Assembly (NCBI GenBank): GCA_015075375.1
Contig: JABTUM010000001.1
Location: 117,201 to 181,200, forward strand
Direction: 5' to 3'
Length of the DNA stretch: 64,000 nucleotides
Source: Planctomycetota bacterium
GTDB taxonomy: Bacteria; Planctomycetota; SZUA-567; H5-PLA8
Under the pieces are notes generated by a model. That model was not told where the DNA came from. It was given only the letters and a program-made list of their open reading frames with translations, and ran no database searches. Position numbers and translations under genes: made by a program. This document shows, piece by piece, positions 9,860-57,507 of this stretch (its first letter is position 1; every line of letters begins with the position of its first letter).

Positions 9860-9868
9860 GCAACCATT

Positions 9869-9878
9869 ATGTATACAT
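9869..9878. promoter_or_regulatory. perfect palindrome ATGTATACAT in the divergent promoter region (candidate GntR operator)
   Basis: This 10-bp perfect palindrome sits in the 106-bp intergenic region between the GntR gene start (9859) and the large-protein start (9966). It contains the GT-N-AC core typical of GntR operators. Confidence 0.4.
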
Positions 9879-9965
9879 TGTGTTTCTACCGCAAGCGTTC
9901 GCCGCTCGGACTATACAGTGGAACGCCGCGAGTCGGCAGGCGCGGTCATCCTGAAGGAGTCCACC

Positions 9966-23809: not shown

Positions 23810-23819
23810 GCCCTGAATC

Positions 23820-24512: not shown

Positions 24513-24552
24513 TAGATTCTCCTGAATCGTTCCATTAGGGCACCCGTCGCTC

Positions 24553-25653: not shown

Positions 25654-25684
25654 CCCGGGATCCCGGCGCGTCCCGATTCGTCCA

Positions 25685-26992: not shown

Positions 26993-27009
26993 ACCGCTGT
27001 TCCTTGCCG

Positions 27010-39712: not shown

Positions 39713-39714
39713 GG

Positions 39715-40590: not shown

Positions 40591-40595
40591 GGCAG

Positions 40596-44500: not shown

Positions 44501-47500
44501 GCGCGCCGGAACGGATGAGGTTGCTCCCGTTCCGGACCACGTGGGAAGATGGGCGCCGGCGATGACGAGTTCTATGACGCTGCCTTTTGCGGCCGCGCGT
44601 GGCACCGCCGCATGCAGCACCGGAGGGGGCGTCACTTCGAACCCGCCGGGTAATAATGCTTCCACTCCGTCAGGATTGATCAGCACCACGTCCCATGTCC
44701 CGGGAAAGCACCCGGCGAGATTCAGATCGAATTCCAGGCTGCCCGCCCCGATTAGCCGTTCGTTCGTCGCGGCGATCTTTGGTTGTCCTTCCATCCTCAA
44801 CTCGACCTGCGGGGGTATGCGCTTCACATATTCGCAAACGTACGGGCGCGAAGAAGCGGTAGTGTCTTTCCAGGACAGCCCATGGGCGTAGGCGACATAT
44901 TGTTCGGATGTGCTGTTCGGCTCTCCATCGGCCCACGCCGTGTATCCGACTGCTTCCCCATTATCCCACACGTTCGTTTCGGTTGCCGTCGGGTCGTTCA
45001 GCCCGATCCATCCGTTGGCACGCCCGTTTAGCCGCCAAACAAACTCATTCTCGGCCGCGTCGCCCAGCGTGACCAAGTGGCCGCCTTGGCTTGCACACTG
45101 CGACCGCGCGCTCGTCCAGGAAACGCCCTCCTTGATGTAACGGTAATACCTTCCAGCATAGGGAACCGCGCCCGCCGTATACGCAATACGGCCTTCCTGG
45201 AAGCCCGTCCCTGAAAGCACGATTTTGTCTGGACTACTGCCCGTCCACGATCCGCTCAAATCCACGCCAATCACTGTCGGCGTGGAAAGCGCCGAAGTCA
45301 CACTGAACTGAAACGCGGCGGACGCCGGTAGGGCATTGCCGAATCGGTCGCGTGCGGACGGAGTCTGGATCGTCACGGTGTACGTCGCGCCTGAATCCCA
45401 TAAGCCTGCGGGCGTGAACGTCAGCGTTCGATGATCCGACCAGACCCAGGTTCCCGATACCGTGCCACCGGTGATGCTGGCCACGTCTCCCGCCGCGACA
45501 CTCGTGTCCATCGGTTCGCTGAAGGAGACTATCAGATCCTGCCAACGAGGCGCATGACCGGGTGAGTCCCCGCAATAGAAGGATTCGACGCTCGGGGGGA
45601 GCGGATCTTGAAGCATGAAGCGCAAGTCCGTCATGTCCGTGCCGTCAGGGTTGGCGAATGCGAGGCTGAAGCGGTCCCCTCCCGTATCTTCATGGTGTTT
45701 GAGGAGGACTGAGTGCCAACCGGCCGCGAGAGGAATAACCGTATCGAGATCGCCCTGCGCGGAAAGAGGGTTGGAGTTCTGATCCACGAAAATCTGCAAC
45801 TCCCGGTCCGCATGCGCCAGGACGCGTACATCGCGGGCAGTGGGCGCGTACAGATAGAGCGCGGCATAGCCGACATAGTTATCGCCGAGGTCTTCGTGCC
45901 AATCCCCGTCGTCGTCGGCATCGGTCAGGTCAGTCCAGACCATCTGCGTAGTCGACGGTAAGCCGCGCATGGGGTAGTGCTGTCCGACGCTGGGCTGGTG
46001 GCGCTCCTCCGCGACTTCGCCCGAATAGATCATGTAGTCCCAAAGGATGTCCACGCCATCGGCGGGCGAACCGGTCATACGTCCGGTGCTTGGGCCCAGA
46101 TGCAGCAGGCGCTTTACCTTGCCCGCCGGGAGAGGGAAACCGTTCACGTTCAGCGTCACCGTGGCGATGGCGCTGTCGCCGTCGGAATCGCGCGCCACGT
46201 ACGTGAATGCGTCGGGGCCTTCGTATCCAGGCTCGGGCGTGTACGTAAAGGAGCCGTCAGGGCGTAGATCTAGCGTCCCGTGCGCGGGATCGCTCTGCTT
46301 AACGGCCTCGATGGGCCCGCCGTTGAAATCATCGTCGTTAGCTAGCACACCGCGGTACGAAGCGATCTCGTGGACCGGCGCGCCGGGCAAGTCGTAACGG
46401 TCGTTCTGAGTTACCGGCGGCGGATGAGCCAGATTAAGGATTTCCAGCGCGCTCAGCGCCCGCCCATACAAACGCGCATCGTCTATCCGTCCGGGCGTGC
46501 GGTTGGTTGCCGTACTGGTGCCTCCAATGAAGACGTTGTCGCTGCCGTACTCCAGCAAGCCGAAAAGGTGCGTTGCCTTGGCGCGCTCCTGGCCGTCTAC
46601 GTAGAGGATTGCGGCGCCCGATTCGGAATCGTATGTCGCGGCGAAGTGATGCCATTCGTTCAGATAGGCCGCGTTGAGCTGCGTATCGAACACGTATATA
46701 TCGGGCGCATTGACGCGATCGATTCGGAATTGGAGACGCCCGTCAGCGTGGCTCCAGCGCAGGAACGGACCAAGCGAGGATGAGCCGTTGCGCATCAGAT
46801 CCGAATGCTGTCCACTGCCGCTACGAGTCTGCGTCATACGCGCCCACAACGCGAAGGTGATCGCGTTGGCGGGTTTCAAACTGGGCGTGCTAAAGACCTG
46901 TACGTAGCCTAAGGTGTCCGGATAACTGGCTGCGAAACCCTCTGGGCTGGGCCCCCAGGTCGCACCGCTGGAAAGGATTGCCGTTCGACCCTTGCCCGAA
47001 CTGTCAGCCGACGATGAGCCAACACCCTCATTGAACTTCCAATGGCCCAGCGTATAGGTGTTTCCCGCCGGTGCGACGACGATCCGGACCGTGACTGCCT
47101 CCGAATACAAGCCTCCCGCCAGCACGCGGTAGGTGAAGGAGTCCTCGCCCGTGAAAAGGGCATGGGGCGTGTACTGCAGCGAGCCGTCGGCGTTCAGCGT
47201 CACGCTGCCGTTCGTGGGATCGCTCAACTTCTCGGCGTTCAGTTCGTCGCCGTTGACGTCCAAGTCGTTGACCAACACCCCGGGCGCCGGCTGGTTGAGC
47301 GGCATGTCTCGAGCCGTATACAACACGTCATTCTTGGCCATCGGCCCGACAGGCGCGAAGTCCGCTCTCAGATCCTCTTCGTTGATGGTACGGCCGTAGA
47401 TGCGTATATCGTCAAGTTGGCAGTGCGGCGGAAATACGGCGCTGCCGAATTGCGTGATGTGCGGCAGAGATGACCCGCTACCGGAGGTAAGAGCGGAATG

Positions 47501-48892
47501 GTAGCGGCCATTAATATAAAGCCGGTAGGGCCCCAAGCCCGGGTTGACAATCGCGATATGGACCCACTTATTTAGTGGCACCGTGTAATTGAAATAGTTC
47601 TTGATGTCGGCGTTTAGGTAGTCGGAAATGTACAGCTTACCCAGATCGTTCACGCCGATGCTCTGAAAATTCGGCGAAGAGGTGAAGTTCCCGAATGTCT
47701 GCTCGACCGAAATCTCGGCCAAGCGGTTGACCCAAAAGCTCACGGCTTGAGGCTGCGCGATCTCGCGCTCCAGCGTCACGACACGATGGGCGGCATCCAA
47801 CTGCAAAGCACCGGCAGCGATGCCGGGTATCCAGGCCGTATCGTCGGAAAGCGTGCCGGGATTGGGCAACGCGCCTAAGTCCGCGACCGCCGTACCCGTC
47901 ATCTCGTCGAACGGGTAATGCGATATCTGCCCGCCCAGGATCAGATAAACCGTCGCGGGTGCCGTAGTAAACGTGCCATCGCTGGCCGAGTAAGTGAACG
48001 AATCCAGTCCCCGATAGCCTCCGAAAGGCGTATACGAAAATTGACCGTTGGAGTTAACGCTCAGCGTACCGTGTTGCGGATCGCTCTCCTTTTGAGCCGT
48101 AATCGCGTCGCCGTTGGGATCGTACGCTCGATTGAGCACCCCGGGCAAAGTGGCCTGGAAGACCTCCTCGGAAGGCACCGAGAAATATCGATCCTTGATA
48201 ATCTGCGGCGGGAGCGGAGGAATCAGGTCCGCGACTTCCGTGCTGCCGAGCGCGCGGCTGTACAGCCGGAAGTCGTCGAGCGTACCTTTCAGAGTTCCTT
48301 CGCCGCCGCCGCCCAGATTCTGAATACTCAGGGCCATGCTTTTGCTCAGAGTGCTCTTAAGAGAACCGTCCACGTATAGCTGCGTAGTACTCCCGTTGCA
48401 GACGAATGCCAGATGCACCCATCTCCCGTCGATTGGCGCCGAATAAACGAAGCTGGAGAGAAAGTCGCCGGCGGTGCCGGTCGTACGCGTGATCCCGACA
48501 TTCATGTTCCAAGAAGGCCACTGCTCCAGCAGAATCTCGGAGGTAGGCGAGTAGACGATCTTGCTGTTCGAACCACCGCTGAATTCGCGACGCACCCACA
48601 CCGCCGCCGTCCACGGCGCAGGGATTTCCGGCACGTTCAAGCTCACGTGGTCGTCCACGCCGTCGAACTTCAGCCCGCCGCCCAAGAGGCCGGGCACCCA
48701 TTGCGGATTCTGAACCAAAGTCCCGTGGTAGGCGTTGGCGCTCTCGTCGAAGGCCGTCGGGCCGGACCCTTCGTCGAAGGTCAGGTGGACAACGAGATCG
48801 TCCTGCGCGGAAGCTGGAATACAGGCGAAACAGATGCAGGCCAGCAGCGCCAACCGCTGGAGCCATCCGTTTTCGATACCGTTTGCTTGCAT
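41600..48892 (-). CDS. giant secreted adhesin-like protein (2430 aa) with LamG/concanavalin-like, C-type lectin, PKD and tandem cadherin/Ig-like repeat domains
   Basis: A signal peptide MQANGIENGWLQRLALLACICFACIPASA is present. LamG-like regions (LDDFRLYSRAL, LDDIRIYGR) are interspersed. The C-type lectin segment is WTSARSQCASQGGHLVTLGDAAENEFV..WIGLND..YVCEY. The PKD segment is WDFGDGQTSTEPNPEHIYAAPGVYRVTVVVTDEEGG. Three to four near-identical roughly 100-aa repeats (TADSYATDEDTALTGTSVLANDSDAHGGAPGESNTPITAELVDGP..) also occur. Confidence 0.8.
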   Translation of the reverse strand: MQANGIENGWLQRLALLACICFACIPASAQDDLVVHLTFDEGSGPTAFDESANAYHGTLVQNPQWVPGLLGGGLKFDGVDDHVSLNVPEIPAPWTAAVWVRREFSGGSNSKIVYSPTSEILLEQWPSWNMNVGITRTTGTAGDFLSSFVYSAPIDGRWVHLAFVCNGSTTQLYVDGSLKSTLSKSMALSIQNLGGGGEGTLKGTLDDFRLYSRALGSTEVADLIPPLPPQIIKDRYFSVPSEEVFQATLPGVLNRAYDPNGDAITAQKESDPQHGTLSVNSNGQFSYTPFGGYRGLDSFTYSASDGTFTTAPATVYLILGGQISHYPFDEMTGTAVADLGALPNPGTLSDDTAWIPGIAAGALQLDAAHRVVTLEREIAQPQAVSFWVNRLAEISVEQTFGNFTSSPNFQSIGVNDLGKLYISDYLNADIKNYFNYTVPLNKWVHIAIVNPGLGPYRLYINGRYHSALTSGSGSSLPHITQFGSAVFPPHCQLDDIRIYGRTINEEDLRADFAPVGPMAKNDVLYTARDMPLNQPAPGVLVNDLDVNGDELNAEKLSDPTNGSVTLNADGSLQYTPHALFTGEDSFTYRVLAGGLYSEAVTVRIVVAPAGNTYTLGHWKFNEGVGSSSADSSGKGRTAILSSGATWGPSPEGFAASYPDTLGYVQVFSTPSLKPANAITFALWARMTQTRSGSGQHSDLMRNGSSSLGPFLRWSHADGRLQFRIDRVNAPDIYVFDTQLNAAYLNEWHHFAATYDSESGAAILYVDGQERAKATHLFGLLEYGSDNVFIGGTSTATNRTPGRIDDARLYGRALSALEILNLAHPPPVTQNDRYDLPGAPVHEIASYRGVLANDDDFNGGPIEAVKQSDPAHGTLDLRPDGSFTYTPEPGYEGPDAFTYVARDSDGDSAIATVTLNVNGFPLPAGKVKRLLHLGPSTGRMTGSPADGVDILWDYMIYSGEVAEERHQPSVGQHYPMRGLPSTTQMVWTDLTDADDDGDWHEDLGDNYVGYAALYLYAPTARDVRVLAHADRELQIFVDQNSNPLSAQGDLDTVIPLAAGWHSVLLKHHEDTGGDRFSLAFANPDGTDMTDLRFMLQDPLPPSVESFYCGDSPGHAPRWQDLIVSFSEPMDTSVAAGDVASITGGTVSGTWVWSDHRTLTFTPAGLWDSGATYTVTIQTPSARDRFGNALPASAAFQFSVTSALSTPTVIGVDLSGSWTGSSPDKIVLSGTGFQEGRIAYTAGAVPYAGRYYRYIKEGVSWTSARSQCASQGGHLVTLGDAAENEFVWRLNGRANGWIGLNDPTATETNVWDNGEAVGYTAWADGEPNSTSEQYVAYAHGLSWKDTTASSRPYVCEYVKRIPPQVELRMEGQPKIAATNERLIGAGSLEFDLNLAGCFPGTWDVVLINPDGVEALLPGGFEVTPPPVLHAAVPRAAAKGSVIELVIAGAHLPTWSGTGATSSVPARFGVRVSPGIFSTGTLTLTPTGLVCQVDLDWLFVGTHTIELLEGYTPGASTSMEIVEASHSIYGESGYALDGEFNLGSGLPSGDGEEGGDFVADFTVAAPAPRVLSLLPAPGPLGAPPQEVVAEFDEPLDADSAIAESILLQYAGDDEALGTADDVAVPLETLSLETPQRIRATFNPTVWARGKYRLRLLSGGLKDLDGNALDGENSGGGDSFPTGDGDAGGHAEFDFELNRAPATTADSYATDEDTALTGTSVLANDSDAHGGAPGESNTPITAELVDGPAHAAAFTLNEDGTFAYTPATDYQGSDGFTYRAVDALGAESNVTAVTITVGSLNDSPVTVADAYTTNEDTLLTGSSVLANDSDAHGGAPGESNTPLTAELVDGPVHAAAFTLNEDGTFTYTPAAEYNGSDVFSYRAVDALGSASSDTIVTLTVNGINDAPVTLADLYGTSEDTALTGTSVLANDSDAHGGAPGESNTPITAELVDSPAHAAAFTLNEDGTFAYTPATDYQGSDGFTYRAVDALGAESNVTAVTITVGNVNDLPKLTVMGGSDGPFGTDPGDPFAFVAEVADADAGDSHTWLWDFGDGQTSTEPNPEHIYAAPGVYRVTVVVTDEEGGQDVLELFVEVTGLIKHTGLLVSQTKYTLNFGKKTIAHPYVDSFTLSGKVNAQSLLDAGLNPEQLSGKQVEVDVGGASASLASPSSSSSTSVVWQSPRGAIPNLKVTYSPKTGAVSVALSGIDLAESLDALGAENAAGISNRLVMVPVALRIGGTGGWSSLALLGTRYTCSRVGSSGKGIFRLARPEHPIPGGLFFVTKAAVSQRSSKGVLEQRVQATVQFVPMAGAPFNPAGAGGAALRLGQYEEDVGDGSVGSTGFVILGEGLQQYLRPKTVALTGVSSLRWDAGRATLTIITNWLPATPGTGSFGIAPVLDSRSDPRVVSEFLIGIEADSSGGEQRVRLRRAGTSWKP
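42870..43810. repeat. roughly 300-bp near-identical tandem DNA repeats (3-4 copies) inside the adhesin gene
   Basis: The same protein block appears in overlapping plus-strand ORFs 42984.., 43308.. and 43592... The minus-strand product shows the repeats ..VLANDSDAHGGAPGESNTP.TAELVD.P.HAAAFTLNEDGTF.YTPA.. Confidence 0.7.
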
Positions 48893-48937
48893 CGTACCCG
48901 AGTGCTCTCGCCGTTCCGTCGTCAGGTTTAAGTCCGG

Positions 48938-49909
48938 CTAGTAATGCCCGTCTCCGCTGCTGGTGCCGCCGCCGCCGCTGGTGCTGGTGCTGGTAGTGGT
49001 ACTGGTACTGGCGCTGGAATTGGTGCTGGAACTGGTGTTCGTGCTGCTGCCAACTCCTGAGGTAGTCGCCGTAGTCGAACCTTGCCCCGTGCTGGTGCTG
49101 CTGGTTGACGCCGTGGCCGTGCTGGAAGCCGTGGAACTTGCGCCTGTACCGGCCGTCGAGGATGTAGAAGTTGAACTCGCATTCGAAGTCGCGCTCGTGG
49201 ACGCCGTGCCCGTGGACGACGTGCTGCTGTTCGAACTATTACTGCTTGTGGAGTTGGCCGTGCTTGCGGCGGTCGTGCTCATGCTCCCTGAAGTAGTGGT
49301 AGAAGCCGAAGTACTTCCACCAGTTGAGCTGCTCGTACTTGAAGTTGAAGTCGAAGGATCGGACTCCCTACCCAGCAGGTAAACCCGATACTTGTCATTG
49401 GGTAGCTTCTTGCCCGCCAAATCAACGCGTGCAGTCGTCGAACTCGTTAATGTTACCGAAGTGGGTACCACGGGTACTTCGTTCCCCTCCCCAAAGCTCC
49501 CATCGCCGCCACTGCGTACCAAAAGCACCGTTTGAGTATTCACGCTGGCAGCCAGGACCGGCTCGCTGAACGTCACAATCAGTTCCGCGGGCACACCGTC
49601 AACCGTACTGCCTGGCGCAGGCGATACGGAGATGACACGAGGTGGAGCCTGCTCGGGCATGCCCGAAGTGGAGGCCGTCGCCGTGCTGGCCGTTGAAGTG
49701 GAGTTGCTTACGGGCTGCGGCCCCGGCACGTACGAACGCACCGTAGGCGGCGCGCCATCGGCCTGGACCCAGGAAGTCGTCAGCCCCATCAGCAGCACAA
49801 GCACCACCAGGAACCCAGCAATAACCAGCAATTCGATCATGCCGTGCGGAGTGGCGGAAGCGCTGCCGTTCGTGCAATTTCTTGGAGGCATGAAATGGAA
49901 ATTTCCCAA
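48938..49909 (-). CDS. Ser/Thr-rich low-complexity protein with N-terminal prepilin-like TM segment and Ig-like (Big) domain
   Basis: The segment HGMIELLVIAGFLVVLVLLMG resembles the prepilin N-terminal methylation/TM motif. SVSPAPGSTVDGVPAELIVTFSEPV is Ig-like. The C-terminal roughly 150 aa are almost pure S/T/G/A. The DNA at 48960..49330 consists of GTGCTGGTG-type repeats. Confidence 0.5.
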   Translation of the reverse strand: MGNFHFMPPRNCTNGSASATPHGMIELLVIAGFLVVLVLLMGLTTSWVQADGAPPTVRSYVPGPQPVSNSTSTASTATASTSGMPEQAPPRVISVSPAPGSTVDGVPAELIVTFSEPVLAASVNTQTVLLVRSGGDGSFGEGNEVPVVPTSVTLTSSTTARVDLAGKKLPNDKYRVYLLGRESDPSTSTSSTSSSTGGSTSASTTTSGSMSTTAASTANSTSSNSSNSSTSSTGTASTSATSNASSTSTSSTAGTGASSTASSTATASTSSTSTGQGSTTATTSGVGSSTNTSSSTNSSASTSTTTSTSTSGGGGTSSGDGHY

Positions 49910-50267
49910 GCAGAAAGAGCGTTCAAGGCGTCCAACACGAAGTTAGAAAATTGTATGCTGTAATAGGATAAAATACCAAGGATTTTCGTGATATCCCCTC
50001 CCCCTTTCGAGGGCAGTCATAAGGGCGTAACGTTGCTCATGCACCTGAGCATGGCAACGGCCATCGGTCTTCGATACATGGGTAAGAGAATATGGCGGCA
50101 CCAAGCCGACCCCCGGTTTAGGAATGCCGGGAGCCGTAAGTTGTAAGCCTTTTCGGTCTTGAGGTTTGCGCGTTCGTCGGAAAACTTTGGGCGGCTACTT
50201 GGCCGAAGGCGTTGCGCTGCTTTGCACTGATCTGCACGGACCACGCCAAACCCGATACTCCTTCAAC

Positions 50268-50342
50268 CCTACTCTTCATATTTTTTCTTTGACGGTCCCT
50301 TCACTCTCTGTTCCGCCACGCGATGAGTTTTCACGTAGCACG
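50268..50342. repeat. degenerate copy of the 70-bp 'tail' repeat module at the 3' boundary of cassette ORF 50351..50749
   Basis: CTACTCTTCATATTTTTTCTTTGACGGTCCCTTCACTCTCTGTTCCGCCACGCGATGAGTTTTCACGTAGCACG aligns to the consensus CTATTCTACTTTTTCTTCGACGGCTTCTTCATCCCCTGTTCCGCCACGCGATGAGTTTTTGCGTAGGACG. Confidence 0.65.
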
Positions 50343-50350
50343 CACAGCAG

Positions 50351-50749
50351 CTACACAGGTTTGTCTTCAATTGTAACATCTATAGAGTCAAGCTTGGCCT
50401 TCTGAGCCAACAACTCGGCATGTCCTCGATACATCTCACCAAGGGAAAGCCTGCCTTTAATCCTCGCTTCCAAAAGGAGTTCCTTAATGGAGACACTTTG
50501 TAATCGAGTGAACCCTTTTCGCACCCAATGAACTATCTTTGCTATATCCCCAGACGATTTTGACACGGCATACACTTCCACACGGTCTGCCCCACCAGCC
50601 TCACGTGGAACCTTCATTTCGCGAACGCTTCCAATTTCAATCCCACACTGATTACACTTGCTTATTACTAGCGCCCCTAAATCGGCAACTATGTCCATAG
50701 CACCACCGCATTTAGGACACGGGTTAAGAATTTCCATGTTATTCGCCAA
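50351..50749 (-). CDS. cassette ORF 1: hypothetical protein with N-terminal zinc ribbon (CPKCG..CNQCG)
   Basis: This is a 132-aa ORF in the lower-GC island. It ends 9 bp from a tail-repeat copy. Confidence 0.4.
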   Translation of the reverse strand: MANNMEILNPCPKCGGAMDIVADLGALVISKCNQCGIEIGSVREMKVPREAGGADRVEVYAVSKSSGDIAKIVHWVRKGFTRLQSVSIKELLLEARIKGRLSLGEMYRGHAELLAQKAKLDSIDVTIEDKPV

Positions 50750-50811
50750 TCATATTTCAGGTAAGTGCTTGTAAAGGGGGTGAGACCGAATCCGGTCAAA
50801 AATTTCCCGGT

Positions 50812-51265
50812 ACCACGCAGCAAGCGCCGCGAGATTGCTCCGCGCCTCACCGGCCGCGCACGCGCAAGCCTCCACCCATTCGTCCATCGCCACGGGCGCG
50901 CCCTTGCCCGCAGCCCCGCAGGGGCGACATACTAAAGCGAGGGGCGCGAGCCCCTCGACCCAAGCACCCCTCTCCATCAGGAGCCCTGAAAGGGCGACCT
51001 AAAGCCACCCCGAACCGAAGAACTCCGAGCGCCTCACCGAGATCCTCCGCCGAACAGCCACGAGCGGATGCCGGAGAATGGAGGGCGCGGTAGCCGAACC
51101 GATCCACACATCACGCGCGGCCGATTCCCGCGCTCCCCGTCGTCGCACGCAGCGCTTCGCGCCCCTCCCACCCGCCTGCGTTCGTCTCTGCTATTCTACT
51201 TTTTCTTCGACGGCTTCTTCATCCCCTGTTCCGCCATGCGAAGAGTTTTTGCGTAGGACGGCGGG
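50812..51265. repeat. mosaic repeat unit (B-module + 3' half of A-module + linker + tail)
   Basis: Modules recur at 51580, 52274, 53505, 54403, 55345 and 56934. The unit contains GC hairpins GAGGGGC-gcga-GCCCCTC and GCCCC-tgc-GGGGC. Confidence 0.7.
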
Positions 51266-51271
51266 GCTACG

Positions 51272-51532
51272 CTACTCTGTTGCAAGACCAATCATGTCCG
51301 GCAATTCCTTAACAAAGTTTCTATATGCGTGGTCCTGCGCTTCAGAGGCTATCTGTTCCAGTTCCTTGCGGAGGGCCACTTGATCAGAAGGTTGCAGCGC
51401 AAGGAGGCTTGAAGCAATATTCTCCATGCCGCGTACCGCAGTATCTGGATTTATTTCATCTGGCCCAGAAGACTCAAGCAACAAGATAGCATCGATCAAG
51501 CCGTGAATGAGGGGAAGGTTGTTTTTTATCAA
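51272..51532 (-). CDS. cassette ORF 2: small hypothetical protein (86 aa)
   Basis: This ORF has low GC. Its stop lies 7 bp from the tail-repeat end. Confidence 0.35.
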   Translation of the reverse strand: MIKNNLPLIHGLIDAILLLESSGPDEINPDTAVRGMENIASSLLALQPSDQVALRKELEQIASEAQDHAYRNFVKELPDMIGLATE

Positions 51533-51579
51533 TGTGCGAGCCTCACTTTTATTCCGTTAATGTTATATGTTTGAAGGAA

Positions 51580-51864
51580 GCGGGTAGCCCACACCAATCT
51601 CCGATTTGTGTGGGTGAGGTTGCGAACAAGAGGCACACAGCAGGCCCCACGAAGTCACCTCTTGACACGACTTCCGCCGAACAGCCACGAGCGGATGCTG
51701 GAGGATGGAGGGCGCGGTAGCCGAACCGATCCGCACTTCACGCGCGGCCGATTCCCGCGCTTCGCGCCCCTCCCACCCGCTTGCGTTCGTCTAGACTATT
51801 CTACCTTTTCTTCGGCGGGACCTTCATCCCTGCTCCGCCACGCGATGAGTTTTTGCGGAGGACG
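51580..51864. repeat. repeat unit (A-module + short linker + tail)
   Basis: The unit begins GCGGGTAGCCCACACCAATCTCCGATTTGTGTGGGTGAGG, which contains the hairpin CCCACAC-13nt-GTGTGGG. It ends ..GAGTTTTTGCGGAGGACG. Confidence 0.75.
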
Positions 51865-52163
51865 GGACGACTCTTTGAACGGCGATTAAGGCACCATTCG
51901 CAAACAGCAGCGGTCAATATTAGGAATCCAAGCCTAGTTAGAATATCTAAAATCGCTCTATTTCCCACCCAGTCGTGATGTCGATGTCCAATATACCGAA
52001 GCTCCGGCCAACGAATGATAAATGTGGGCATAAAGAGCCCAAGTTCAATAACGACAAGACAAAGAGTCAGCAAATGCATCTGAAGTAGTGATCTCTTGCC
52101 CACTATCACCATGCCTCCACGACAAGGGCTTCTACGGCATGCGGACAAACCCCATATCTTCAC
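51801..52163 (-). CDS. cassette ORF 3: small hydrophobic hypothetical protein. Its 3' end reads into a frameshifted copy of the tail.
   Basis: The ORF ends ..VLRKNSSRGGAGMKVPPKKR, which is encoded by a variant tail. The true 5' start is probably internal (MVIVGKRS..). Confidence 0.3.
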   Translation of the reverse strand: MKIWGLSACRRSPCRGGMVIVGKRSLLQMHLLTLCLVVIELGLFMPTFIIRWPELRYIGHRHHDWVGNRAILDILTRLGFLILTAAVCEWCLNRRSKSRPVLRKNSSRGGAGMKVPPKKR

Positions 52164-52273
52164 CGCAGCACTTAAGATCTCCTCTCCATTTCTCCTTTTG
52201 TCCCACTGCTTCTAAAACTCCTCACTAGCCTCTTGGGGCCGATTCGCATCAGGAATTGGTGCACCATCTCCGG

Positions 52274-52835
52274 CACCCTTAAAGCGGGTAGCCCGCACAA
52301 ATCTCCGATTTGTGTGGGTGAGCTTGCGAACAAGAGGCACACCGCAGGCCCCACGAAGTCACCTCTTGACACGATTTCCGCCGAACAGCCACGAGCGGAT
52401 GCTGGAGGATGGAGGGCGCGGTAACCGAACCAATCCGCACTTCACGCGCGGCCGATTCCCGCGCCGGGTGCCGCGGAGCAAGCGCCGTGAGCTTGCTCCG
52501 CGCCTCACCTCACCGGCCGCGCACGCTCAAACCTAGCGCCCATCATCCACCGCCACGGGCGCGCCCTTGCCCGCAGCCCCGCAGGGGCGACATACTAAAG
52601 CGAGGGGCGCGAGCCCCTCGACCCAAGCACCCCTTTCCATCAAGAGCCCTGAAAGGGCGACCTAAAGCCACCCCGACCCGAAGAGCACCGAGCGCCTCGC
52701 CGGCCGCGCACGCACAAGCATCCACCCCTTCGTCCACCGCCACGCGCTCGCCCTCTGCCGCCCGCCTACTCTACTTTTTCTTCGGCGGCTTCTTCATCCC
52801 CTGTTCCGCCACGCGAAGACGGTATGCGTAAGACC
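52274..52835. repeat. full-length repeat unit (A + linker + B + tail), about 560 bp
   Basis: This is the longest copy. It shows that the A and B modules found separately elsewhere can be contiguous. Confidence 0.75.
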
Positions 52836-53422
52836 GGTTTGGGCAGGATGCTGACGTTTGCGTCCTCATCAATTGTCATTTGGAATGGCCCCATACCTGT
52901 AAATCTAGACTTAGTTTGCCTAAAAAGTTCACCCGTGAAAATGCCCGCCCCTGAGGTAAAGAACTCGCCTTCGTCTATGTAAATATAGCCATTACAGCAC
53001 TGCGCTATATCCGCAACAACCAGGGGCAATATATTTGCTTCCACGTGAGTTCGACTGGCAAAGCATAGTACGACAATCTCGTAACCAGCCTCAGTCATGG
53101 CCTTCATGATACTCGACCTACTCTCAGGAGGAATGGTATTCCCAAGACCCGCAAATACAGCCTTTATCGCTGACTCTTCAGACTCACAAATATAAAAGTG
53201 AATGCTCTTTAGCCTCGCGTCCTCAAATCCATACACCGCTGTTTTTTCCAGGATTCCATTAGCATCAATTTTTGCATTACGCTTCAGATCAATAAGATCA
53301 AACTTTGGAAGTTCTTTGGAAATAGAACGAGCAAGTTCACAGTCCTTCGACAGAGCATCAATTACGTCTTTAGCGCAAAGTGGCCCACTCCGAGTGGGTA
53401 AGATTGTCAGATCAACGCTCAT
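52766..53422 (-). CDS. cassette ORF 4: hypothetical protein (218 aa). Its last roughly 20 aa (..PSSRGGTGDEEAAEEKVE) are encoded by the tail repeat.
   Basis: The unique body shows no recognisable domain. The C-terminus is in frame with the tail consensus peptide. Confidence 0.45.
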   Translation of the reverse strand: MSVDLTILPTRSGPLCAKDVIDALSKDCELARSISKELPKFDLIDLKRNAKIDANGILEKTAVYGFEDARLKSIHFYICESEESAIKAVFAGLGNTIPPESRSSIMKAMTEAGYEIVVLCFASRTHVEANILPLVVADIAQCCNGYIYIDEGEFFTSGAGIFTGELFRQTKSRFTGMGPFQMTIDEDANVSILPKPVLRIPSSRGGTGDEEAAEEKVE

Positions 53423-53504
53423 GACTCCCCCTGAGCTTACAGTGAGATACTATGGGGCAACTGGCTCTGCTATAAGCACTTCGCCAGTGGGCGTGTGGCC
53501 GGTA

Positions 53505-53842
53505 CCGGGTGCCGCGGAGCAAGCGCCGTGGGCCTGCTCCGCGCCTAACCGACCACCGCCACGGGCGCGCCCTTGCCCGAAGCCCCGCAGGGGCGACATG
53601 CTAAAGCGAGGGGCGCGAGCCCCTCGACCCAAGCACCCCTCTCCATCAAGAGCCCTGAAAGGGCGACCTAAAGCCACCCCGACCCGAAGAACACCGAGCG
53701 CCTCGCCGGCCGCGCACGCGCAAGCCTCCACCCCTTCGTCCCCCGCCACGCGTTCGCCCTCTGCCGCCCGCCTATTCTACTTTTTCTTCGACGGCTCCTT
53801 CATCCCCTGTTCCGCCACGCGATGAGGGTTTGCGCAGGACGG
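53505..53842. repeat. repeat unit (linker + B-module + tail)
   Basis: The sequence matches the 52480..52835 portion of the full unit. Confidence 0.75.
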
Positions 53843-54359
53843 GCTTATCAGTCTCCTTGGCCGGTACACCGGTACAGAATTCAATGCGCTCTTCTAAAAT
53901 ATATAGGTCGTCTCCAGCAGAAAGCCTTTCCGATATGACGGAAACAAATTTGCAGAGGGCTTGGTAGCCGGAGGCTGCCTCCTTTTGCAATATGTCGCGT
54001 CGAATTACCCGCTCTTCAACGGGTATATCCCCAAAAGGCTCATTAATGGAATGTGTACTCCAGGCGAGAATATATGATCCCGGATTAGCAGCTGCGCTTT
54101 TTAGGACATTTCTTAGTTTGGGATTCAATTTATAAAGAGTTGTCCTATGGGAAGTTCCGTTGGGTAGAGACGAAGATTCCCGTTCAATTCGGATTAGCCA
54201 CCCTGTCCCGTCTTCGGGCTCATAAATCGCACAAAGACTATACTTGGATAGTTTGAGGTCACTTAGATTCAATGAGAACCCGGAAGTTCTCCAACTGCCT
54301 ATTCCTGAACGCGCCTCATCCTCAGATAACAGAATTAGATGCTCCGTTGTGGTTATCAT
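53772..54359 (-). CDS. cassette ORF 5: hypothetical protein (195 aa). Its C-terminus (..LRKPSSRGGTGDEGAVEEKVE) is encoded by the tail repeat.
   Basis: The body is unique. It carries the same tail peptide as ORF 52766..53422. Confidence 0.45.
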   Translation of the reverse strand: MITTTEHLILLSEDEARSGIGSWRTSGFSLNLSDLKLSKYSLCAIYEPEDGTGWLIRIERESSSLPNGTSHRTTLYKLNPKLRNVLKSAAANPGSYILAWSTHSINEPFGDIPVEERVIRRDILQKEAASGYQALCKFVSVISERLSAGDDLYILEERIEFCTGVPAKETDKPVLRKPSSRGGTGDEGAVEEKVE

Positions 54360-54402
54360 GGCTCAACCTCAAAAACTTGCATTCCTTTTACATTAATTAG
54401 AC

Positions 54403-54709
54403 GCGGGTAGCCCACCCAAATCCCCGATTTGTGTGGGTGAGCTTGCGAACAAGAGGCACACCGCAGGCCCCACGAAGTCACCCCTTGACACGATTTCCGC
54501 CGAACAGCCACGAGCGGATACTGGAGGATGGACGGCGCGGTAGCCGAACCGATCCGCACTTCACGCGCGGCCGATTCCCGCGCTCCCCGTCTTCGCACGC
54601 CGCGCGTCGCGCCCCTCCCACCCGCTTGCGTTCGTCTCGGCTATTCTACTTTTTCTTCGACGGCTCCTTCATCCCCTGTTCCGCCACGCGATGAGTTTTG
54701 CGTAGGACG
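54403..54709. repeat. repeat unit (A-module + linker + tail)
   Basis: The architecture is the same as the 51580 copy. Confidence 0.75.
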
Positions 54710-54724
54710 CCCCCGCCGCACTTT

Positions 54725-55330
54725 TCAAGCGCCCTTCACATCCCAACCAGGATTGTTACAATACTGGCGGTCTATGCATACTGGCAATTCACTCAACTCC
54801 ATATCGGTCCAGACCACACTAATATTGCATTTATTACCGTTTGGCATTTCGCTCTCAAGTATCCGTCGTCCTCCAATCTCCGGAAAGCGATCCTCAAAGT
54901 AGTCAGGGGGATCGTCGACAACAATGACATGAGCTGCGTTGCAATAACTCGCACACTTCTTAATCATATTCCAGTACTTTCGCTTCCTCGATTCGTTAAG
55001 CTCATGAAACAGCCGTTTCGACCATCCGAACTCCATATACGGATTGGAGTATCCCGTTGCAAAGCCACAGACAAAGAACAACTCAGAATTGCGGCATTCA
55101 ACCAAGAACTGCTCATGCTTCGATAACCGCTTTATTAGATCTGCTTTGATGGGTTGAGCCACTCGAACCTCTTCGCCATGTTCAAGATGACCCAACTCGT
55201 CAATCGGGTTTGCGGGTCGGATTAAATCGTCAAATTCGAGCCCAAAGTCGGCAAGCACGCTAACCGCACCTGCGGGCTTGAGCGCCAGCCTAGGGCCTGG
55301 AAAAAAGAAAGCATAATGCCAGGATGCCAT
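54725..55330 (-). CDS. cassette ORF 6: hypothetical protein (201 aa)
   Basis: This ORF has lower GC. Its stop lies 16 bp from the tail end. Confidence 0.4.
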   Translation of the reverse strand: MASWHYAFFFPGPRLALKPAGAVSVLADFGLEFDDLIRPANPIDELGHLEHGEEVRVAQPIKADLIKRLSKHEQFLVECRNSELFFVCGFATGYSNPYMEFGWSKRLFHELNESRKRKYWNMIKKCASYCNAAHVIVVDDPPDYFEDRFPEIGGRRILESEMPNGNKCNISVVWTDMELSELPVCIDRQYCNNPGWDVKGA

Positions 55331-55344
55331 GATTATCCCTTACT

Positions 55345-55761
55345 CTTACGGAATGGCGGGTGCCGGGACCGGGCGCCACGCAACAAGCGCCGTGGGCTTG
55401 CTCCGCGCCTCACCGGCCGCGCACGCGCAACCCTCCACCTACGCATCCACCGCCACGCGCTCGCCCTTGCCCGCAGCCCCGCAGGGGCGACATACTAAAG
55501 CGAGGGGCGCGAGCCCCTCGACCCAAGCACCCCTCTCCATCAAGAGCCCTGAAAGGGCGACATAAAGCCACCCCGACCCGAAGAACACCGAGCGCCTCAC
55601 CGGCCGCGCACGCGCAAGCCTCCACCCCTTCGTCCACCGCCACGCGCTCGCCCTCTGCCACCCGCCTATTCTACTATTCCTTCGGCGGCTCCTTCATCCC
55701 CAGTTGCGCCACGCGAAGAGTTTTTGCGGAGGACGCACGCGATGAGTTTTTGAGTAGGACG
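55345..55761. repeat. repeat unit (linker + B-module + tail, with a partially duplicated tail end)
   Basis: The sequence ends ..GCGAAGAGTTTTTGCGGAGGACGCACGCGATGAGTTTTTGAGTAGGACG, which is two tandem tail ends. Confidence 0.7.
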
Positions 55762-55764
55762 CGG

Positions 55765-56385
55765 TTACAGACGCCATACTTCCTTGTTACTTCCATTCAG
55801 TACTGAAATTATCTCTGCGCCCTTAATCACCACAAGGAATTTACTTGGCAAGAAGAGAGCACAGAGAACAATGGGCCGCAGCTTTAAGAACTCATATACA
55901 TAAGCAGCCTTCAATTTGTCCGGAGGCGGCTTGACGCCGTTACCTAAAACTGGACCGATATACCAACCAGAATCATGAACCTTGGCATTGGGGACATTTC
56001 TCTCAAGATATATTTCGTCATCCTCAATGCAGCCTGCATCAAATATAACCTTCTCGCTAAACAAGCACTCCGTACCTTCTACGCCACATCGGTTTAGAAC
56101 ATCAACTTGCATACTTAAAATACGGAGGGTTGATGTAACACTCTCGCGATACTCTAAAAACGGGTTTCTATCAAAATCGGGCTCACAAACAACAAAGCCA
56201 AACGAACGCTCATACAGGACAAAGTGTGACCACCCGACTTGAATACGACATCCATCAAAAAGCCCCTTACTAGTTAAAGCAATGTTAGATAGGACGCTAA
56301 ACAACCACTCGACTTGCGCGTCAAGCCCTTCAGCACAGAATAGCCTAACCTCAAACTTCCCATCAATCTTTCTTGCGAAGACCAC
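55765..56385 (-). CDS. cassette ORF 7: hypothetical protein (206 aa)
   Basis: This ORF has lower GC. Its stop abuts the tail end (about 4 bp). Confidence 0.4.
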   Translation of the reverse strand: MVFARKIDGKFEVRLFCAEGLDAQVEWLFSVLSNIALTSKGLFDGCRIQVGWSHFVLYERSFGFVVCEPDFDRNPFLEYRESVTSTLRILSMQVDVLNRCGVEGTECLFSEKVIFDAGCIEDDEIYLERNVPNAKVHDSGWYIGPVLGNGVKPPPDKLKAAYVYEFLKLRPIVLCALFLPSKFLVVIKGAEIISVLNGSNKEVWRL

Positions 56386-56400
56386 GCTAGTCCCCTTTGA

Positions 56401-56452
56401 GGTGTGAGTCTATCCCCAGTTCCGTCACGCGACGAGTTTATGCAGAGGACAG
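56401..56452. repeat. tail-only repeat remnant
   Basis: ..CCCCAGTTCCGTCACGCGACGAGTTTATGCAGAGGACAG aligns to the 3' half of the tail. Confidence 0.55.
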
Positions 56453-56896
56453 TCAGCCCTCTGGACTTCTGACATATTCAGCTACTTTCAGGCCGTCTCT
56501 CTGATAGATTCTCCGCAAGAATGGCACGAAGACTGCACTTTCCTTCGAGTTTATGCGAACAACATATCTCTCAACTTGGGAGCCATAGTCACACGCAATC
56601 CAAACAAGGTCAATGCAACCATCACCTGTCGGAATTTCCTGATCCGGCATCCCTAGTATATCAATTAAACGGCCCTTGCTAATTCCTAAGTACAGCGCAC
56701 CATCCGCAATTAATGCACAAATGTATTCGTCGGTTCCATTTCGAGGAAGGCTAGTTGTCGCAGATCGTAAATCCTTAAGTCGCCAACTGGTGTAGGCTAC
56801 TCGTATGGGACGCAAATAGGTGATGGCTGCAAATGTGCCGGCACAACTCAGCAGAAGTAGCCCGCCTATTAAAGTTTTTCTGAATTGCAGTCGCAT
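56453..56896 (-). CDS. cassette ORF 8: hypothetical secreted/lipoprotein-like protein (147 aa)
   Basis: The N-terminus MRLQFRKTLIGGLLLLSCAGTFAA is a signal peptide. The stop directly abuts the tail remnant. Confidence 0.4.
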   Translation of the reverse strand: MRLQFRKTLIGGLLLLSCAGTFAAITYLRPIRVAYTSWRLKDLRSATTSLPRNGTDEYICALIADGALYLGISKGRLIDILGMPDQEIPTGDGCIDLVWIACDYGSQVERYVVRINSKESAVFVPFLRRIYQRDGLKVAEYVRSPEG

Positions 56897-56933
56897 TACA
56901 CTCTCGAATTATGGAAAGGTTAGATGGACCGCA

Positions 56934-56990
56934 GCGGGTAGCCCACACAAATCCCCGATTTGTGTGGGTGAGCTTGCGAACAAAAGGCGC
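56934..56990. repeat. A-module 5' fragment (hairpin end only)
   Basis: GCGGGTAGCCCACACAAATCCCCGATTTGTGTGGGTGAGCTTGCGAACAA is followed by sequence that diverges from the other copies. Confidence 0.6.
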
Positions 56991-57507
56991 TCACGACGGC
57001 ATCCGCACGGATTCATCCACTGATTTTCCAACTCCCAGCATGCGCCCGCGCCGTCTTCGGCTGCGCTGGAGCGTCCGGTCCAAGGAAGCCGTACCTTCAA
57101 CATCCACCCCACCCCACGCATGCTAGGCACTCACCCCGCGCGCCGAAACTAGAAAACCCCAAACAACCGCACCCACCTACCCACACGCGTAACCGCCCTG
57201 CGTCGCCGAGCGCCGAAGGCCACGGAAGGCCGCGCTTATTTGGCCTCCAAGCCGCCTGCACCCGTTCAGCCCCGCGCGCATAGCGCGCAAAGCGCTAAGC
57301 ACCTGCGTGCAAATATACGCTTTGCAGTAGCGATTTATAGCAGTTTTATGGCAGGATCGAATTTTTGCTCGACGTGCGCGAGGTGGTATAGACCGCCTTT
57401 TTGTTCTTATAACCCCTTAAAACACGTCCGAAATTCCGCCGCACAAGAGCACCACCCGCCACGGCGTTCATGCTTCATTCATGCTATATTTCATGCCGTT
57501 CTGAGCA

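Follow-up and report, generated by a model that had tools for sequence, protein, structure and literature searches.

Results

The window analysed here, a 64-kb stretch of a contig from a Planctomycetota bacterium, contains between 50.1 and 57.0 kb an array of eight co-oriented low-GC ORFs of 86-218 aa on the minus strand (Table 1). GC content is 0.47-0.58 across 50-57 kb and 0.60-0.70 in the surroundings, and both this drop and the set of eight ORFs are as described in a first-pass annotation of the sequence. The ORFs have a GC content of 0.44-0.49 and a GC3 of 0.42-0.52 (n = 8), against 0.60-0.64 and 0.66-0.76 in the three neighbouring genes that were measured, while the junctions between the ORFs range from 0.50 to 0.67 and those bearing repeat module A or B from 0.59 to 0.67. 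By composition, the ORFs are foreign and the A- or B-bearing repeats are host-like. The array lies between two conserved chromosomal genes. Upstream of it is the gene for a TPR/Gly-Tyr-rich protein, and downstream a giant gene whose product is an adhesin with Ig, cadherin and lectin domains. No polymorphism of the array was seen, the gene order being identical in all assemblies found.

Table 1. Cassette ORFs and junctions (J) of the array, listed from the array head; positions are those of the window, T is the tail, and A, a1, B and Z are further repeat segments.
Feature	Position	Strand	Description
J0 (array head)	56934..57038	-	RAYT-gene relic (last ~49 nt) + right inverted repeat, REP: hairpin + GGGCTACCCGC
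ORF1	56453..56896	-	147 aa; GC 0.468
J1	56412..56450	-	5' half of T only; cassette 2 begins within T after GGGGAT
ORF2	55765..56385	-	206 aa; Imm33-like immunity protein; Pfam PF24719
J2	55355..55761	-	Duplicated T 5' part 55761-55736, T 55735-55663, B 55662-55355; Acido-Lenti-1 at 55520-55475
ORF3	54725..55330	-	201 aa; orphan immunity gene
J3	54400..54710	-	T 54710-54638 + a1 + A, REP hairpin at end (54457-54400)
ORF4	53772..54359	-	195 aa; runs into T, stop codon supplied by T
J4	53490..53846	-	T 53846-53772 + B; Acido-Lenti-1 at 53626-53581
ORF5	52766..53422	-	218 aa; T encodes last ~23 aa
J5	52282..52840	-	T + B (Acido-Lenti-1 at 52620-52575) + A core with REP end
ORF6	51801..52163	-	Up to 120 aa, start uncertain; hydrophobic segments; runs into T
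J6	51577..51866	-	T + a1 (23 nt shorter than that of J3) + A with REP end
ORF7	51272..51532	-	86 aa; GC 0.475
J7	50806..51261	-	Hybrid: T + a1 + A 5' half (to 51046) joined to B 3' part (51039-50806); Acido-Lenti-1 at 50957-50912
ORF8	50351..50749	-	132 aa; N-terminal zinc-ribbon, weak matches only
J8	50107..50345	-	Last T 50345-50266 + terminal segment Z 50265-50107

Two of the cassettes could be tied to immunity functions. The product of ORF2 matches the Pfam model PF24719 with an E-value of 3.7e-12 (46.5 bits, cut-off 27). Three contigs (L007, L009 and L013, which comprise a MAG of the Pirellulaceae, one of the Desulfobacterales and an ENA metagenome contig) each carry a homologue of ORF3 that begins 2-6 nt past one and the same toxin C-terminal domain, and this domain, of about 106-112 aa, is 71-90% identical among the three. 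The 5' end of cassette 3 aligns with the final codons of the L007 toxin gene, the alignment starting exactly where module B ends. Because ORF2 is Imm33-like and the ORF3 homologues stand directly behind a toxin C-terminal domain, the array appears to hold orphan polymorphic-toxin immunity genes, and at least some cassettes would, judging from these matches, have been cut out of polymorphic toxin-immunity modules. The first-pass suggestion of toxin/immunity cassettes thus stands for at least these two ORFs, while the other six have no direct evidence of immunity function, and a search for informative homologues or models for them found none. ORF1, which gave no family match, has a hydrophobic N-terminal segment ending in LLLLSC and is possibly a lipoprotein; ORF8 matches Lar_restr_allev at an E-value of 2.8e-4, under the cut-off; and ORF5 has ten distant homologues, with the alignment confined to residues 1-197 and so short of the part encoded by T. 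No toxin domain was found adjoining any cassette.

The 3' end of each ORF abuts a 75-nt tail, T, which is followed by a mosaic of modules consisting of A, B, B and A together, or an A/B hybrid. Stop codons fall 0-16 nt from the tail in ORF1, ORF2, ORF3, ORF7 and ORF8 and inside it in ORF4, ORF5 and ORF6, the same five-to-three division that had been reported before. The latter three ORFs are trimmed, having lost their own stop and ending in T, and ORF5 shares its T-encoded C-terminus with ORF4. The earlier statement that the ORFs lack mutual similarity accordingly holds except for the last 22-26 aa of these three, which the tail encodes. Repeat copies are 74-98% identical over 26-382 nt, where shuffled sequence is expected to give no matches, and they are absent from the rest of the window, about 57 kb outside the array. 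Both A and B start with GCGGG(T/C)GG and finish with a hairpin followed by GGC(T)ACCCGC, the terminus of A is a GTAG-tagged palindrome, B contains an internal 187-nt direct repeat, and each end of T bears a GTAG/CTAC-type tag. Within the 64 kb the REP head is confined to the array, which has four copies of it. A segment of about 160 nt, Z, follows the last tail. No covariation supports a hairpin in T, copies of the A hairpin bear uncompensated mismatches, and whole-junction folding was not better than that of shuffles.

The junctions carry different subsets of these modules, much as first described: T and A in J3 and J6, T and B in J2 and J4, T, B and A in J5, T only in J1 (half) and J8, and only the 3' end of A in J0, to which we add T with the 5' half of A and the 3' part of B in J7. 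The description of a cassette-like array with a footprint of recombination was also sound, as seen in the sharp boundaries between repeat and unique sequence, the hybrids J5 and J7, the tandem half-tail in J2 and the half-tail in J1, which is 87% identical to the T of J2 over 39 nt. Unique sequence starts exactly at the head motif in 7/8 cassettes and stops exactly at the start of T in all eight.

Unrelated, co-oriented and promoterless-looking small ORFs with a repeat at each 3' end, and with immunity genes among them, could in principle represent an integron array without an integrase (CALIN), or the orphan tail of a polymorphic toxin locus, with former immunity genes shifted to positions downstream of a large toxin gene. 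We regard this explanation as very improbable. Among the sizeable ORFs of the window none was found to encode a tyrosine recombinase, and the junctions all lack an attC R''/R' pair, in agreement with the absence of an integrase and of core sites recorded at first pass, and the repeats are mosaics of 300-560 nt rather than single imperfect palindromes. The upstream gene is the TPR/Gly-Tyr-rich one, the downstream adhesin gene contains no toxin domain, and there are no toxin fragments between the cassettes. With no recombinase among the sizeable ORFs and no attC pair in the junctions, membership among the integrons was rejected; the likeness to an integron noted earlier does not extend to membership, the repeats being assigned to other families.

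These families are Acido-Lenti-1 and the REP/TIR family of a RAYT (REP-associated tyrosine transposase, a Y1 HUH transposase); the repeats are thus of known kinds and not anonymous recombination sites. Acido-Lenti-1 (Rfam RF01687) has four matches in module B, at 43-46 bits with a gathering score of 37, and three more on contig L014. An intact RAYT on L014 is flanked by inverted repeats of 56 nt, to which the final 55-59 nt of A show 87-94% identity; the A end of J3 is 93% identical to the right one. J0 gives a REP pattern match and aligns over 106 nt, at 85% identity, with L014 6465-6570, a segment made up of the 3' end of the RAYT and its right repeat. J8 aligns over 237 nt, at 82% identity, with L014 7393-7626; there, T and Z come after another low-GC ORF. 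The order on L014 is a SUKH-like ORF, REP-RAYT-REP, an ankyrin ORF, and then T, Z and B, a small island in which T, Z and B lie beside two low-GC ORFs and T begins at the base following the ankyrin stop codon. Both contigs occur in assembly ERZ27309503 and their proteins share one NCBI accession block; the array and the L014 RAYT are probably from the same genome. The syntenic site in a relative (L004) contains a low-GC insertion bounded by related repeats and including a RAYT, and the head motif is present at the ends of A, of B, of the L004 repeats R1 and R2 and of both RAYT-flanking repeats.

In one alternative, the transposase itself would have built the array, by cutting single-stranded DNA at GCGGGTRG heads and at T and joining gene-sized foreign fragments, with arrays growing downstream of the RAYT as integrons do at attI. 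Both arrays begin at a RAYT right repeat (intact in L014, a relic in the window), the relative's island also contains a RAYT, T is tagged at both ends, and the boundaries are exact at the head motif and at the start of T, the latter once in L014 as well. Against this, the more distant RAYT homologues lie between housekeeping genes with no array, the RAYT at the array in the window has been deleted, the first L014 cassette abuts the left repeat without a T, and the association between RAYT and arrays was found partly by a RAYT-based search and is biased to that extent. To our knowledge there is no biochemical precedent for gene capture by a RAYT, and a brief look at the literature gave none. 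We think RAYT-driven capture quite unlikely.

A passive role for the repeats is less easily set aside, but we still consider it rather unlikely. A low-GC block of small genes would have been acquired once, its AT-richer spacers later being invaded by RAYT-mobilised REPIN/MITE-type T-A and T-B elements, selfish or neutral, with the mosaic arising from BIME-like decay and recombination. Since the two RAYT copies of the relative are located in low-GC patches with ORFs that do not resemble immunity genes, the repeats may be colonists of foreign DNA and not agents of capture. The L014 RAYT element looks simply inserted, without a T, between two adjacent low-GC ORFs, and its removal would leave a normal spacer of about 70 nt. 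All repeats are in one orientation, as expected for insertion by a Y1 transposase, which in the IS200/IS605 elements inserts into one DNA strand. The similar GC content of all eight cassettes also fits a single en-bloc acquisition, and the seed alignment of Acido-Lenti-1 shows a multi-copy intergenic repeat that is often tandem. However, colonisation calls for a separate insertion into each spacer of the block, eight in all, with none across the remaining 57 kb, and three of the eight would have struck within ORF 3' ends. Elsewhere the ORF3 family is preceded by a toxin gene, which is absent here and whose stub stops exactly at the repeat boundary, and the repeat flanks show no conserved target sequence. 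The first-pass annotation had set its cassette reading against modules dispersed without variable ORFs; the modules do recur at a second locus, L014, but there too they lie beside low-GC ORFs, together with the intact RAYT.

Discussion

The cassettes are tightly trimmed immunity or immunity-like genes without cognate toxins, and a RAYT relic stands at the head of the array. The explanation that we favour, with moderate confidence, is a poly-immunity island like the rAID-1 clusters of Bacteroidales, built on a scaffold of REP/BIME type and with no recombinase gene beside the array. Sequence comparison suggests that this scaffold is lineage-specific, T being followed by REPIN/BIME-like A, B or both, with the head-plus-hairpin design of the L014 RAYT inverted repeats. 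Cassettes may have joined singly, in events that used an exact site on the repeat side (the start of T or a REP head) but cut the foreign DNA imprecisely, and the array could later have been reshuffled by recombination among scaffold copies, both internally and with the sister island. It may be transcribed from its own start, downstream of the terminator of the upstream gene, and the GC-rich hairpins after each ORF could serve as 3' stabilisers or attenuators. The role proposed for the products is defence of the cell against toxins that its neighbours deliver; at least two of the eight cassettes appear to be antidotes to toxins used between bacteria.

The closest parallel to a poly-immunity island of this kind is rAID-1, the recombinase-associated acquired interbacterial defence clusters of Bacteroidales (Ross et al. 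2019, bioRxiv 10.1101/471110), which are likewise co-directional arrays of orphan immunity genes with sub-host GC content, repetitive intergenic sequence and an integron-like look. The array described here is from another phylum, its repeats are long REP/RAYT-family mosaics with Acido-Lenti-1, and no enzyme is linked to them other than a Y1 HUH transposase, which is a relic at the array and intact at the sister locus.

RAYT genes flanked by their own repeats are known as REPtrons or TIRtrons (Di Nocera et al. 2013, PMC3733652). The repeats share with REP, BIME and REPIN elements (PMC3733652) a tagged palindrome (GCGGGTAG and an 11-bp stem), its presence as inverted repeats flanking a RAYT, a location downstream of ORFs, mosaic multi-motif clusters and outward-facing heads. 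In contrast to those elements, the copies seen so far cluster in two low-GC gene arrays instead of being scattered through extragenic space. They share a single orientation instead of forming inverted doublets, and they are linked to a 75-nt tail that is not palindromic and that invariably adjoins the end of an ORF. Acido-Lenti-1 has been described as a probable trans-acting sRNA (Weinberg et al. 2010, PMC2864571), and its Lentisphaera seed sequences also lie in tandem or mosaic repeats of about 70-200 nt. Here it forms one part of a DNA repeat of REP/BIME-like type that separates immunity genes, and the phylum is one that contributes only two sequences to the seed.

Integron arrays and CALINs resemble the array in their unrelated, trimmed and co-oriented ORFs, in the host-specific repeat after each, in ORFs that enter the repeat and in a cassette GC content unlike that of the host, but the array has no IntI, no attI and no attC, that is, neither an R''/R' pair nor a single imperfect palindrome. 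The cassette proteins stem from the pool of orphan toxin/immunity modules found in polymorphic toxin loci (Rhs, CDI, PT-HINT; for example L007). Such loci differ from the array, which contains neither a main toxin gene nor C-terminal toxin fragments, and in which the homology between units lies in a non-coding scaffold rather than in a conserved pre-toxin coding region.

Composition and boundaries of the cassette genes

The first-pass annotation had described a fall in GC content and eight minus-strand ORFs of 86-218 aa at this site, and both are present. In the window GC profile the value is 0.47-0.58 at 50-57 kb as against 0.60-0.70 on both sides. The eight cassette genes, ORF1-ORF8, have a GC of 0.44-0.49 and a GC3 of 0.42-0.52, compared with 0.60-0.64 and 0.66-0.76 in the three neighbouring genes that were measured, and the intervening junctions that bear repeat module A or B are host-like, at 0.59-0.67. 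Most of the eight ORFs have a plausible ribosome-binding site within their own unique leader. They had been called mutually dissimilar, which holds except that ORF4, ORF5 and ORF6 have their C-terminal 22-26 residues in common, a stretch encoded by the repeat tail, T. These three ORFs have no stop codon of their own and their translation terminates inside T; in the other five the stop codon lies 0-16 nt before T, the division that the annotation had given. At the other end, seven of the cassettes have unique sequence that begins exactly after a GCGGG-type head, whereas that of cassette 2 begins inside T.

Cassette genes of the array and the repeat content of its junctions (T, tail; A and B, mosaic modules; a1, the segment before A; Z, a terminal segment of ~160 nt)
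Feature	Position in the window	Strand	Length	Repeat content
ORF1	56896-56453	-	147 aa	
ORF2	56385-55765	-	206 aa	
ORF3	55330-54725	-	201 aa	
ORF4	54359-53772	-	195 aa	
ORF5	53422-52766	-	218 aa	
ORF6	52163-51801	-	up to 120 aa	
ORF7	51532-51272	-	86 aa	
ORF8	50749-50351	-	132 aa	
J0	upstream of ORF1			last ~56 nt of A only
J1				first half of T only
J2				5' part of T duplicated, then T, B
J3				T, a1 + A
J4				T, B
J5				T, B + A core
J6				T, a1 + A
J7				T, a1 + 5' half of A fused to 3' part of B
J8				T, then Z

Immunity genes among the cassettes

Direct evidence for immunity was obtained for two of the eight cassettes. ORF2 belongs to the Imm33-like family of Pfam (PF24719), with a match above the curated cut-off. 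ORF3 has homologues of 40-66% identity, and its family occurs at only three loci in the genome contig collection. The homologue begins 2-6 nt behind another gene in three contigs, L007 (from a Pirellulaceae MAG), L009 (ENA metagenome) and L013 (from a Desulfobacterales MAG). The last ~106-112 residues encoded by that gene form one conserved domain, 71-90% identical between the three, which in L007 is joined to a PT-HINT pre-toxin domain and in L013 has another N-terminal part. At the level of sequence, this arrangement reads as the signature of a polymorphic toxin and its cognate immunity gene. No toxin is encoded in the window. The 24 nt before the ORF3 ATG match the final codons of the toxin gene in L007, and this homology ends exactly where module B ends.

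The Pirellulaceae locus (L007 8909-18314) combines a PT-HINT toxin and the immunity gene of the ORF3 family with another PT-HINT fragment and additional small ORFs. The toxin domain covers residues ~249-361 of the protein encoded at 8909-9994. None of the window's repeat modules is present in 8909-18314. L007 is a classical orphan toxin/immunity array, probably of the type that donates cassettes, and its toxin domain together with ORF3 provides a testable toxin-immunity pair.

The earlier suggestion of a toxin/immunity cassette array is accordingly borne out for ORF2, through PF24719, and for ORF3, through its three toxin-adjacent homologues. For ORF1 and ORF4-8, Pfam, NCBIfam, PADLOC and PDB sequence searches gave nothing usable (the PDB searches with the cassette proteins were empty). 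For ORF4 and ORF5, the AlphaFold models built from the single sequence had pLDDT values of 37 and 35 and could not be used. ORF5 has only ten distant homologues, and the alignment falls within residues 1-197 and leaves the T-encoded end unmatched. ORF1 has a possible lipoprotein signal, ORF6 hydrophobic segments and ORF8 a zinc ribbon with weak matches, features that would be typical of small immunity-like proteins.

Anatomy of the repeats

Read along the minus strand, the junctions carry different subsets of modules, and the mosaic that had been described is confirmed. T (cCGTCCTACGCAAAAACTCATCGCGTGGCGGAACAGGGGATGAAGGAGCCGTCGAAGAAAAAGTAGAATAG) is 75 nt long, closes every cassette, is best conserved in its first ~35 nt and is a piece separate from the A and B elements. 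A and B both start with GCGGG(T/C)GG and both finish with a hairpin and GGC(T)ACCCGC, so that they have outward-facing heads, as in REPIN or MITE-type elements; B also contains an internal 187-nt direct repeat. Footprints of recombination are visible in the hybrids of J5 and J7, in the duplicated half-T of J2 and in the half-T of J1. Searches of the whole 64 kb found none of the modules elsewhere in the window.

Module B contains the Acido-Lenti-1 motif (RF01687); the four hits score 45.7, 45.7, 45.7 and 43.4 bits with the covariance model, whose gathering score is 37. The motif was published in 2010 (PMC2864571) as one of Acidobacteria and Lentisphaerae with no known function. In its published seed alignment there are many copies per genome, often in tandem at 70-200-nt spacing, and two copies come from the Planctomycete Rhodopirellula. 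Our results place Acido-Lenti-1 in a concrete context, as a submodule of REP/BIME-like repeats tied to a REP-associated tyrosine transposase (RAYT), which argues for a role at the DNA level or in a 3'-UTR and not as a free-standing sRNA.

Several other readings of the repeats were considered and set aside. A hairpin proposed for T is 88% paired, yet shuffled columns do at least as well. T has stop codons in every one of its three frames, which would happen by chance in about 1 case in 3. ORFs within the modules look spurious, and the copies are distinguished by indels. A mini-ORF in T (MKEPSKKK, MKKPPKKK or MKEPSKEK; for example window 54670-54644 and, on the related contig L014, 7428-7454) keeps its frame but is probably not meaningful, because its substitutions are mostly non-synonymous and it has no spaced ribosome-binding site. 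Neither the 5' part of A nor the sequence upstream of J0 proved to be decayed RAYT coding sequence. RNA folding of whole junctions was no better than that of shuffles (z 0.28 and -0.72), and a promoter/terminator scan gave no enrichment, save for the terminator-like score of the first Acido-Lenti-1 hairpin.

Relationship of the repeats to REP sequences and a RAYT

On the plus strand the end of A reads GCGGGTAG-CCCACACAAAT-CCCCG-ATTTGTGTGGG, a palindrome tagged on one side with a conserved sequence of the GTAG type; REP sequences have this design of a GTAG-type tag followed by a palindrome (Di Nocera et al., PMC3733652). The array has four copies and the remaining 57 kb of the window has none; two are present in L014, a contig with an intact RAYT of the Y1 HUH type. 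By exact-pattern scan T is absent from the genome and metagenome contig collections, and the A hairpin from the metagenome contig collection, all of which lack this lineage.

A gene adjacent to the array has a 52%-identical homologue in the Planctomycetota MAG GCA_027493525.1, where the syntenic site (L004) carries a low-GC insertion bounded by two ~200-nt repeats whose ends (a hairpin and CGGCCACCCGCC) resemble the end of B. Adjoining this insertion is a Y1_Tnp gene within 59-nt inverted repeats of the same head-plus-hairpin design. A search with this transposase found a 170-aa RAYT, P0070, on contig k141_77277 (L014) of ENA ERZ27309503, an assembly that also contains the array (L018). P0070 is MBE7466614.1 and ORF3 is MBE7461973.1, both named 'Planctomycetes bacterium'; since both contigs are in ERZ27309503 and the two proteins fall in the same NCBI accession block, we infer that L014 and the array come from one genome. 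The Y1_Tnp ORF of L014 (24.6 bits, cut-off 23) is flanked by 56-nt inverted repeats (5910-5965 and 6516-6571) that match the final 55-59 nt of each A module with 87-94% identity. Provided that the genome is the same, the repeat of the array therefore flanks a RAYT in inverted orientation, as in a REPtron.

Positions 57038-56934 of the window are 85% identical over 106 nt to the 3' end of the RAYT coding sequence, ~49 nt of it, together with the right repeat; a RAYT relic heads the array. Only this 49-nt DNA relic is left, as comparison of a RAYT profile with the six-frame translation detected no RAYT protein signal in the window. An autonomous IS200/IS605-type element was rejected, no intact Y1 transposase ORF lying between the ends.

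In GCA_027493525.1 the repeat-RAYT-repeat unit is a 789-nt element present in at least two copies of 96% identity (L004 14415-15199 and, on a second contig, L019 7871-8659), both within low-GC patches; its protein cluster has nine members, and the unit behaves like an active IS and not like a single-copy domesticated RAYT. L004 also contains a tandem heptanucleotide repeat, AGTCCTC, of ~17 copies (17433-17565).

A sister island on L014

T, Z, B and REP recur jointly at a second site, on L014, again adjoining low-GC ORFs. This island consists of the remnant of another type of RAYT; a low-GC ORF that weakly resembles SUKH/SMI1_KNR4 and ends 4 nt before the left repeat; REP-RAYT-REP; a low-GC ankyrin-repeat ORF, with T beginning at the base directly after the stop codon; Z; a B-like module with three tandem 68-nt Acido-Lenti-1 units; and further REPIN-like hairpins. 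SUKH is a classical immunity family, and immunity proteins with ankyrin repeats have been described as well.

At L014 7560-7660, Z runs into a sequence shaped like the 3' half of a tRNA (GGAGGTCGCAGGTTCGAATCCTGCCGGGGACGCCA; variable loop, T arm, acceptor strand and CCA), which was not called by ARAGORN or Rfam and may be what is left of an old att site of an integrative element; the Z of the window ceases to match that of L014 just before this sequence. Beside the B-like module lie further repeat families (L014 8480-8890): CCGGCGTTGAAACGCCGGGCTATTTTC, in two copies, matches Acido-Lenti-1 weakly at 29.9 bits, and GCCGGGTGCCACTGGCC...GGCCAGTGGCACCCGGC is a perfect inverted doublet of 29 nt that bears the same CGGGTGCC head. 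This suggests one tag common to several REP families.

Formation of the array

The locus consists of orphan immunity or immunity-like genes of foreign composition, trimmed within tens of bases and set on a scaffold of T and REP/RAYT-family repeats. We lean towards the interpretation that it is a poly-immunity island in which cassettes were joined singly onto the REP/RAYT scaffold and then reshuffled. Cassettes would have been added one at a time, in joints that are precise towards the repeat and imprecise towards the foreign DNA; at joining, three ORFs would have lost their 3' ends and the toxin gene would have been cut off, so that just a few of its codons remain as a stub. The cassettes may then have been reshuffled as copies of the scaffold recombined with one another inside the array and with those of the sister island. 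The same cassette order was found in all assemblies recovered, among which no turnover was seen; a strain whose flanking protein is 95% identical is represented in Logan DRR491769 and SRR24144931. A role in the transcript is probable for the hairpins that follow each ORF: the first Acido-Lenti-1 hairpin scores as terminator-like, and the classical role of REP is the stabilisation of upstream mRNA.

The main alternative is that the block arrived whole and was colonised by the repeats later. The RAYT element of L014 looks simply inserted between two low-GC ORFs, the two RAYT copies of GCA_027493525.1 lie in patches with non-immunity ORFs, and GC is similar across all cassettes, as this explanation would have it. 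Against it, all eight spacers would have to have been hit, three of them inside coding ends, with the other 57 kb spared, and the toxin stub stops exactly at the repeat boundary; we consider this alternative rather unlikely. A bolder proposal, which we regard as a long shot, is that RAYT and REP-like repeats constitute a single-strand-hairpin gene-capture platform, an integron analogue that arrays orphan immunity genes downstream of the transposase gene, with T as the cassette-side joint and Acido-Lenti-1 as part of the recombination scaffold. Both arrays do start at the right repeat of a RAYT, but the more distant RAYT homologues at L015 and L016 stand alone between housekeeping genes with no array beside them, and we know of no biochemical precedent for gene capture by a RAYT. 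If true, capture would supply a long-sought function of RAYT/REP systems and would give domesticated RAYTs and REP/BIME clusters a role in adaptive gene acquisition.

An orphan tail of a toxin locus was also rejected on account of the flanking genes. The gene upstream encodes a TPR and Gly/Tyr-rich protein and has a canonical terminator, AAAAAGCGCCC-ATTTC-GGGCGCTTTTTTT, at its end; downstream, on the array's minus strand (41600-49909), are an S/T-rich Big_5 protein and then a 2430-aa adhesin-like protein with Ig, cadherin and lectin domains (Big_9, cadherin-like, Laminin_G_3, PKD, C-type lectin). Further along the same strand, 8 kb from the array, an SOS mutagenesis cassette (35445-41213) encodes LexA (40596-41213), an ImuB-like Y-family polymerase and DnaE2. 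The minus-strand genes at 20977-28182 (E2-like UQ_con, Prok-RING with a trypsin-like peptidase, FHA/YscD-like, JAB/MPN peptidase and ThiF E1-like) are a bacterial ubiquitin-like conjugation cluster; clusters of this kind have recently been linked to phage defence.

Comparison with integrons and rAID-1

The likeness to an integron array that had been proposed is real as regards the cassettes, which are co-oriented, unrelated and tightly bounded, and does not amount to membership. Pfam scans of the sizeable ORFs of the 64-kb window detected no Phage_integrase or other recombinase domain, so there is no IntI tyrosine recombinase. A regex scan for attC sites (R'' RYYYAAC ... R' GTTRRRY, imperfect palindrome of 55-150 nt) found no such pair in any junction, the sole pair in 49.9-57.3 kb being inside ORF3. 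The first-pass annotation was therefore right that the window has no integrase and the junctions no R'/R'' core sites.

Orphan immunity arrays marked by a tyrosine recombinase are known from gut Bacteroidales (rAID-1, bioRxiv 10.1101/471110). They are recognised by a 5' XerD-like recombinase at least 44% identical to BF9343_RS08045, followed by at least two co-directional lower-GC genes, immunity homologues and repetitive intergenic sequence (Ross 2019, bioRxiv 10.1101/471110). This is the closest system in function and architecture, as our array likewise has eight co-directional low-GC ORFs, among them the Imm33-like ORF2 and the ORF3 immunity family, separated by intergenic repeats. The 41% GC cut-off of rAID-1, above which the array lies, is specific to Bacteroidales. 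In contrast to rAID-1, the window holds no tyrosine recombinase domain, and because the defining XerD-like recombinase is absent the array is not a member. Its occurrence in a Planctomycete, with a sole candidate driver from a different enzyme family, suggests a wide distribution of consolidated poly-immunity islands, perhaps with more than one origin. The repeats themselves are of known kinds, the REP/TIR of RAYT and Acido-Lenti-1; what is new here is their concentration in immunity arrays, in a single orientation and coupled to T.
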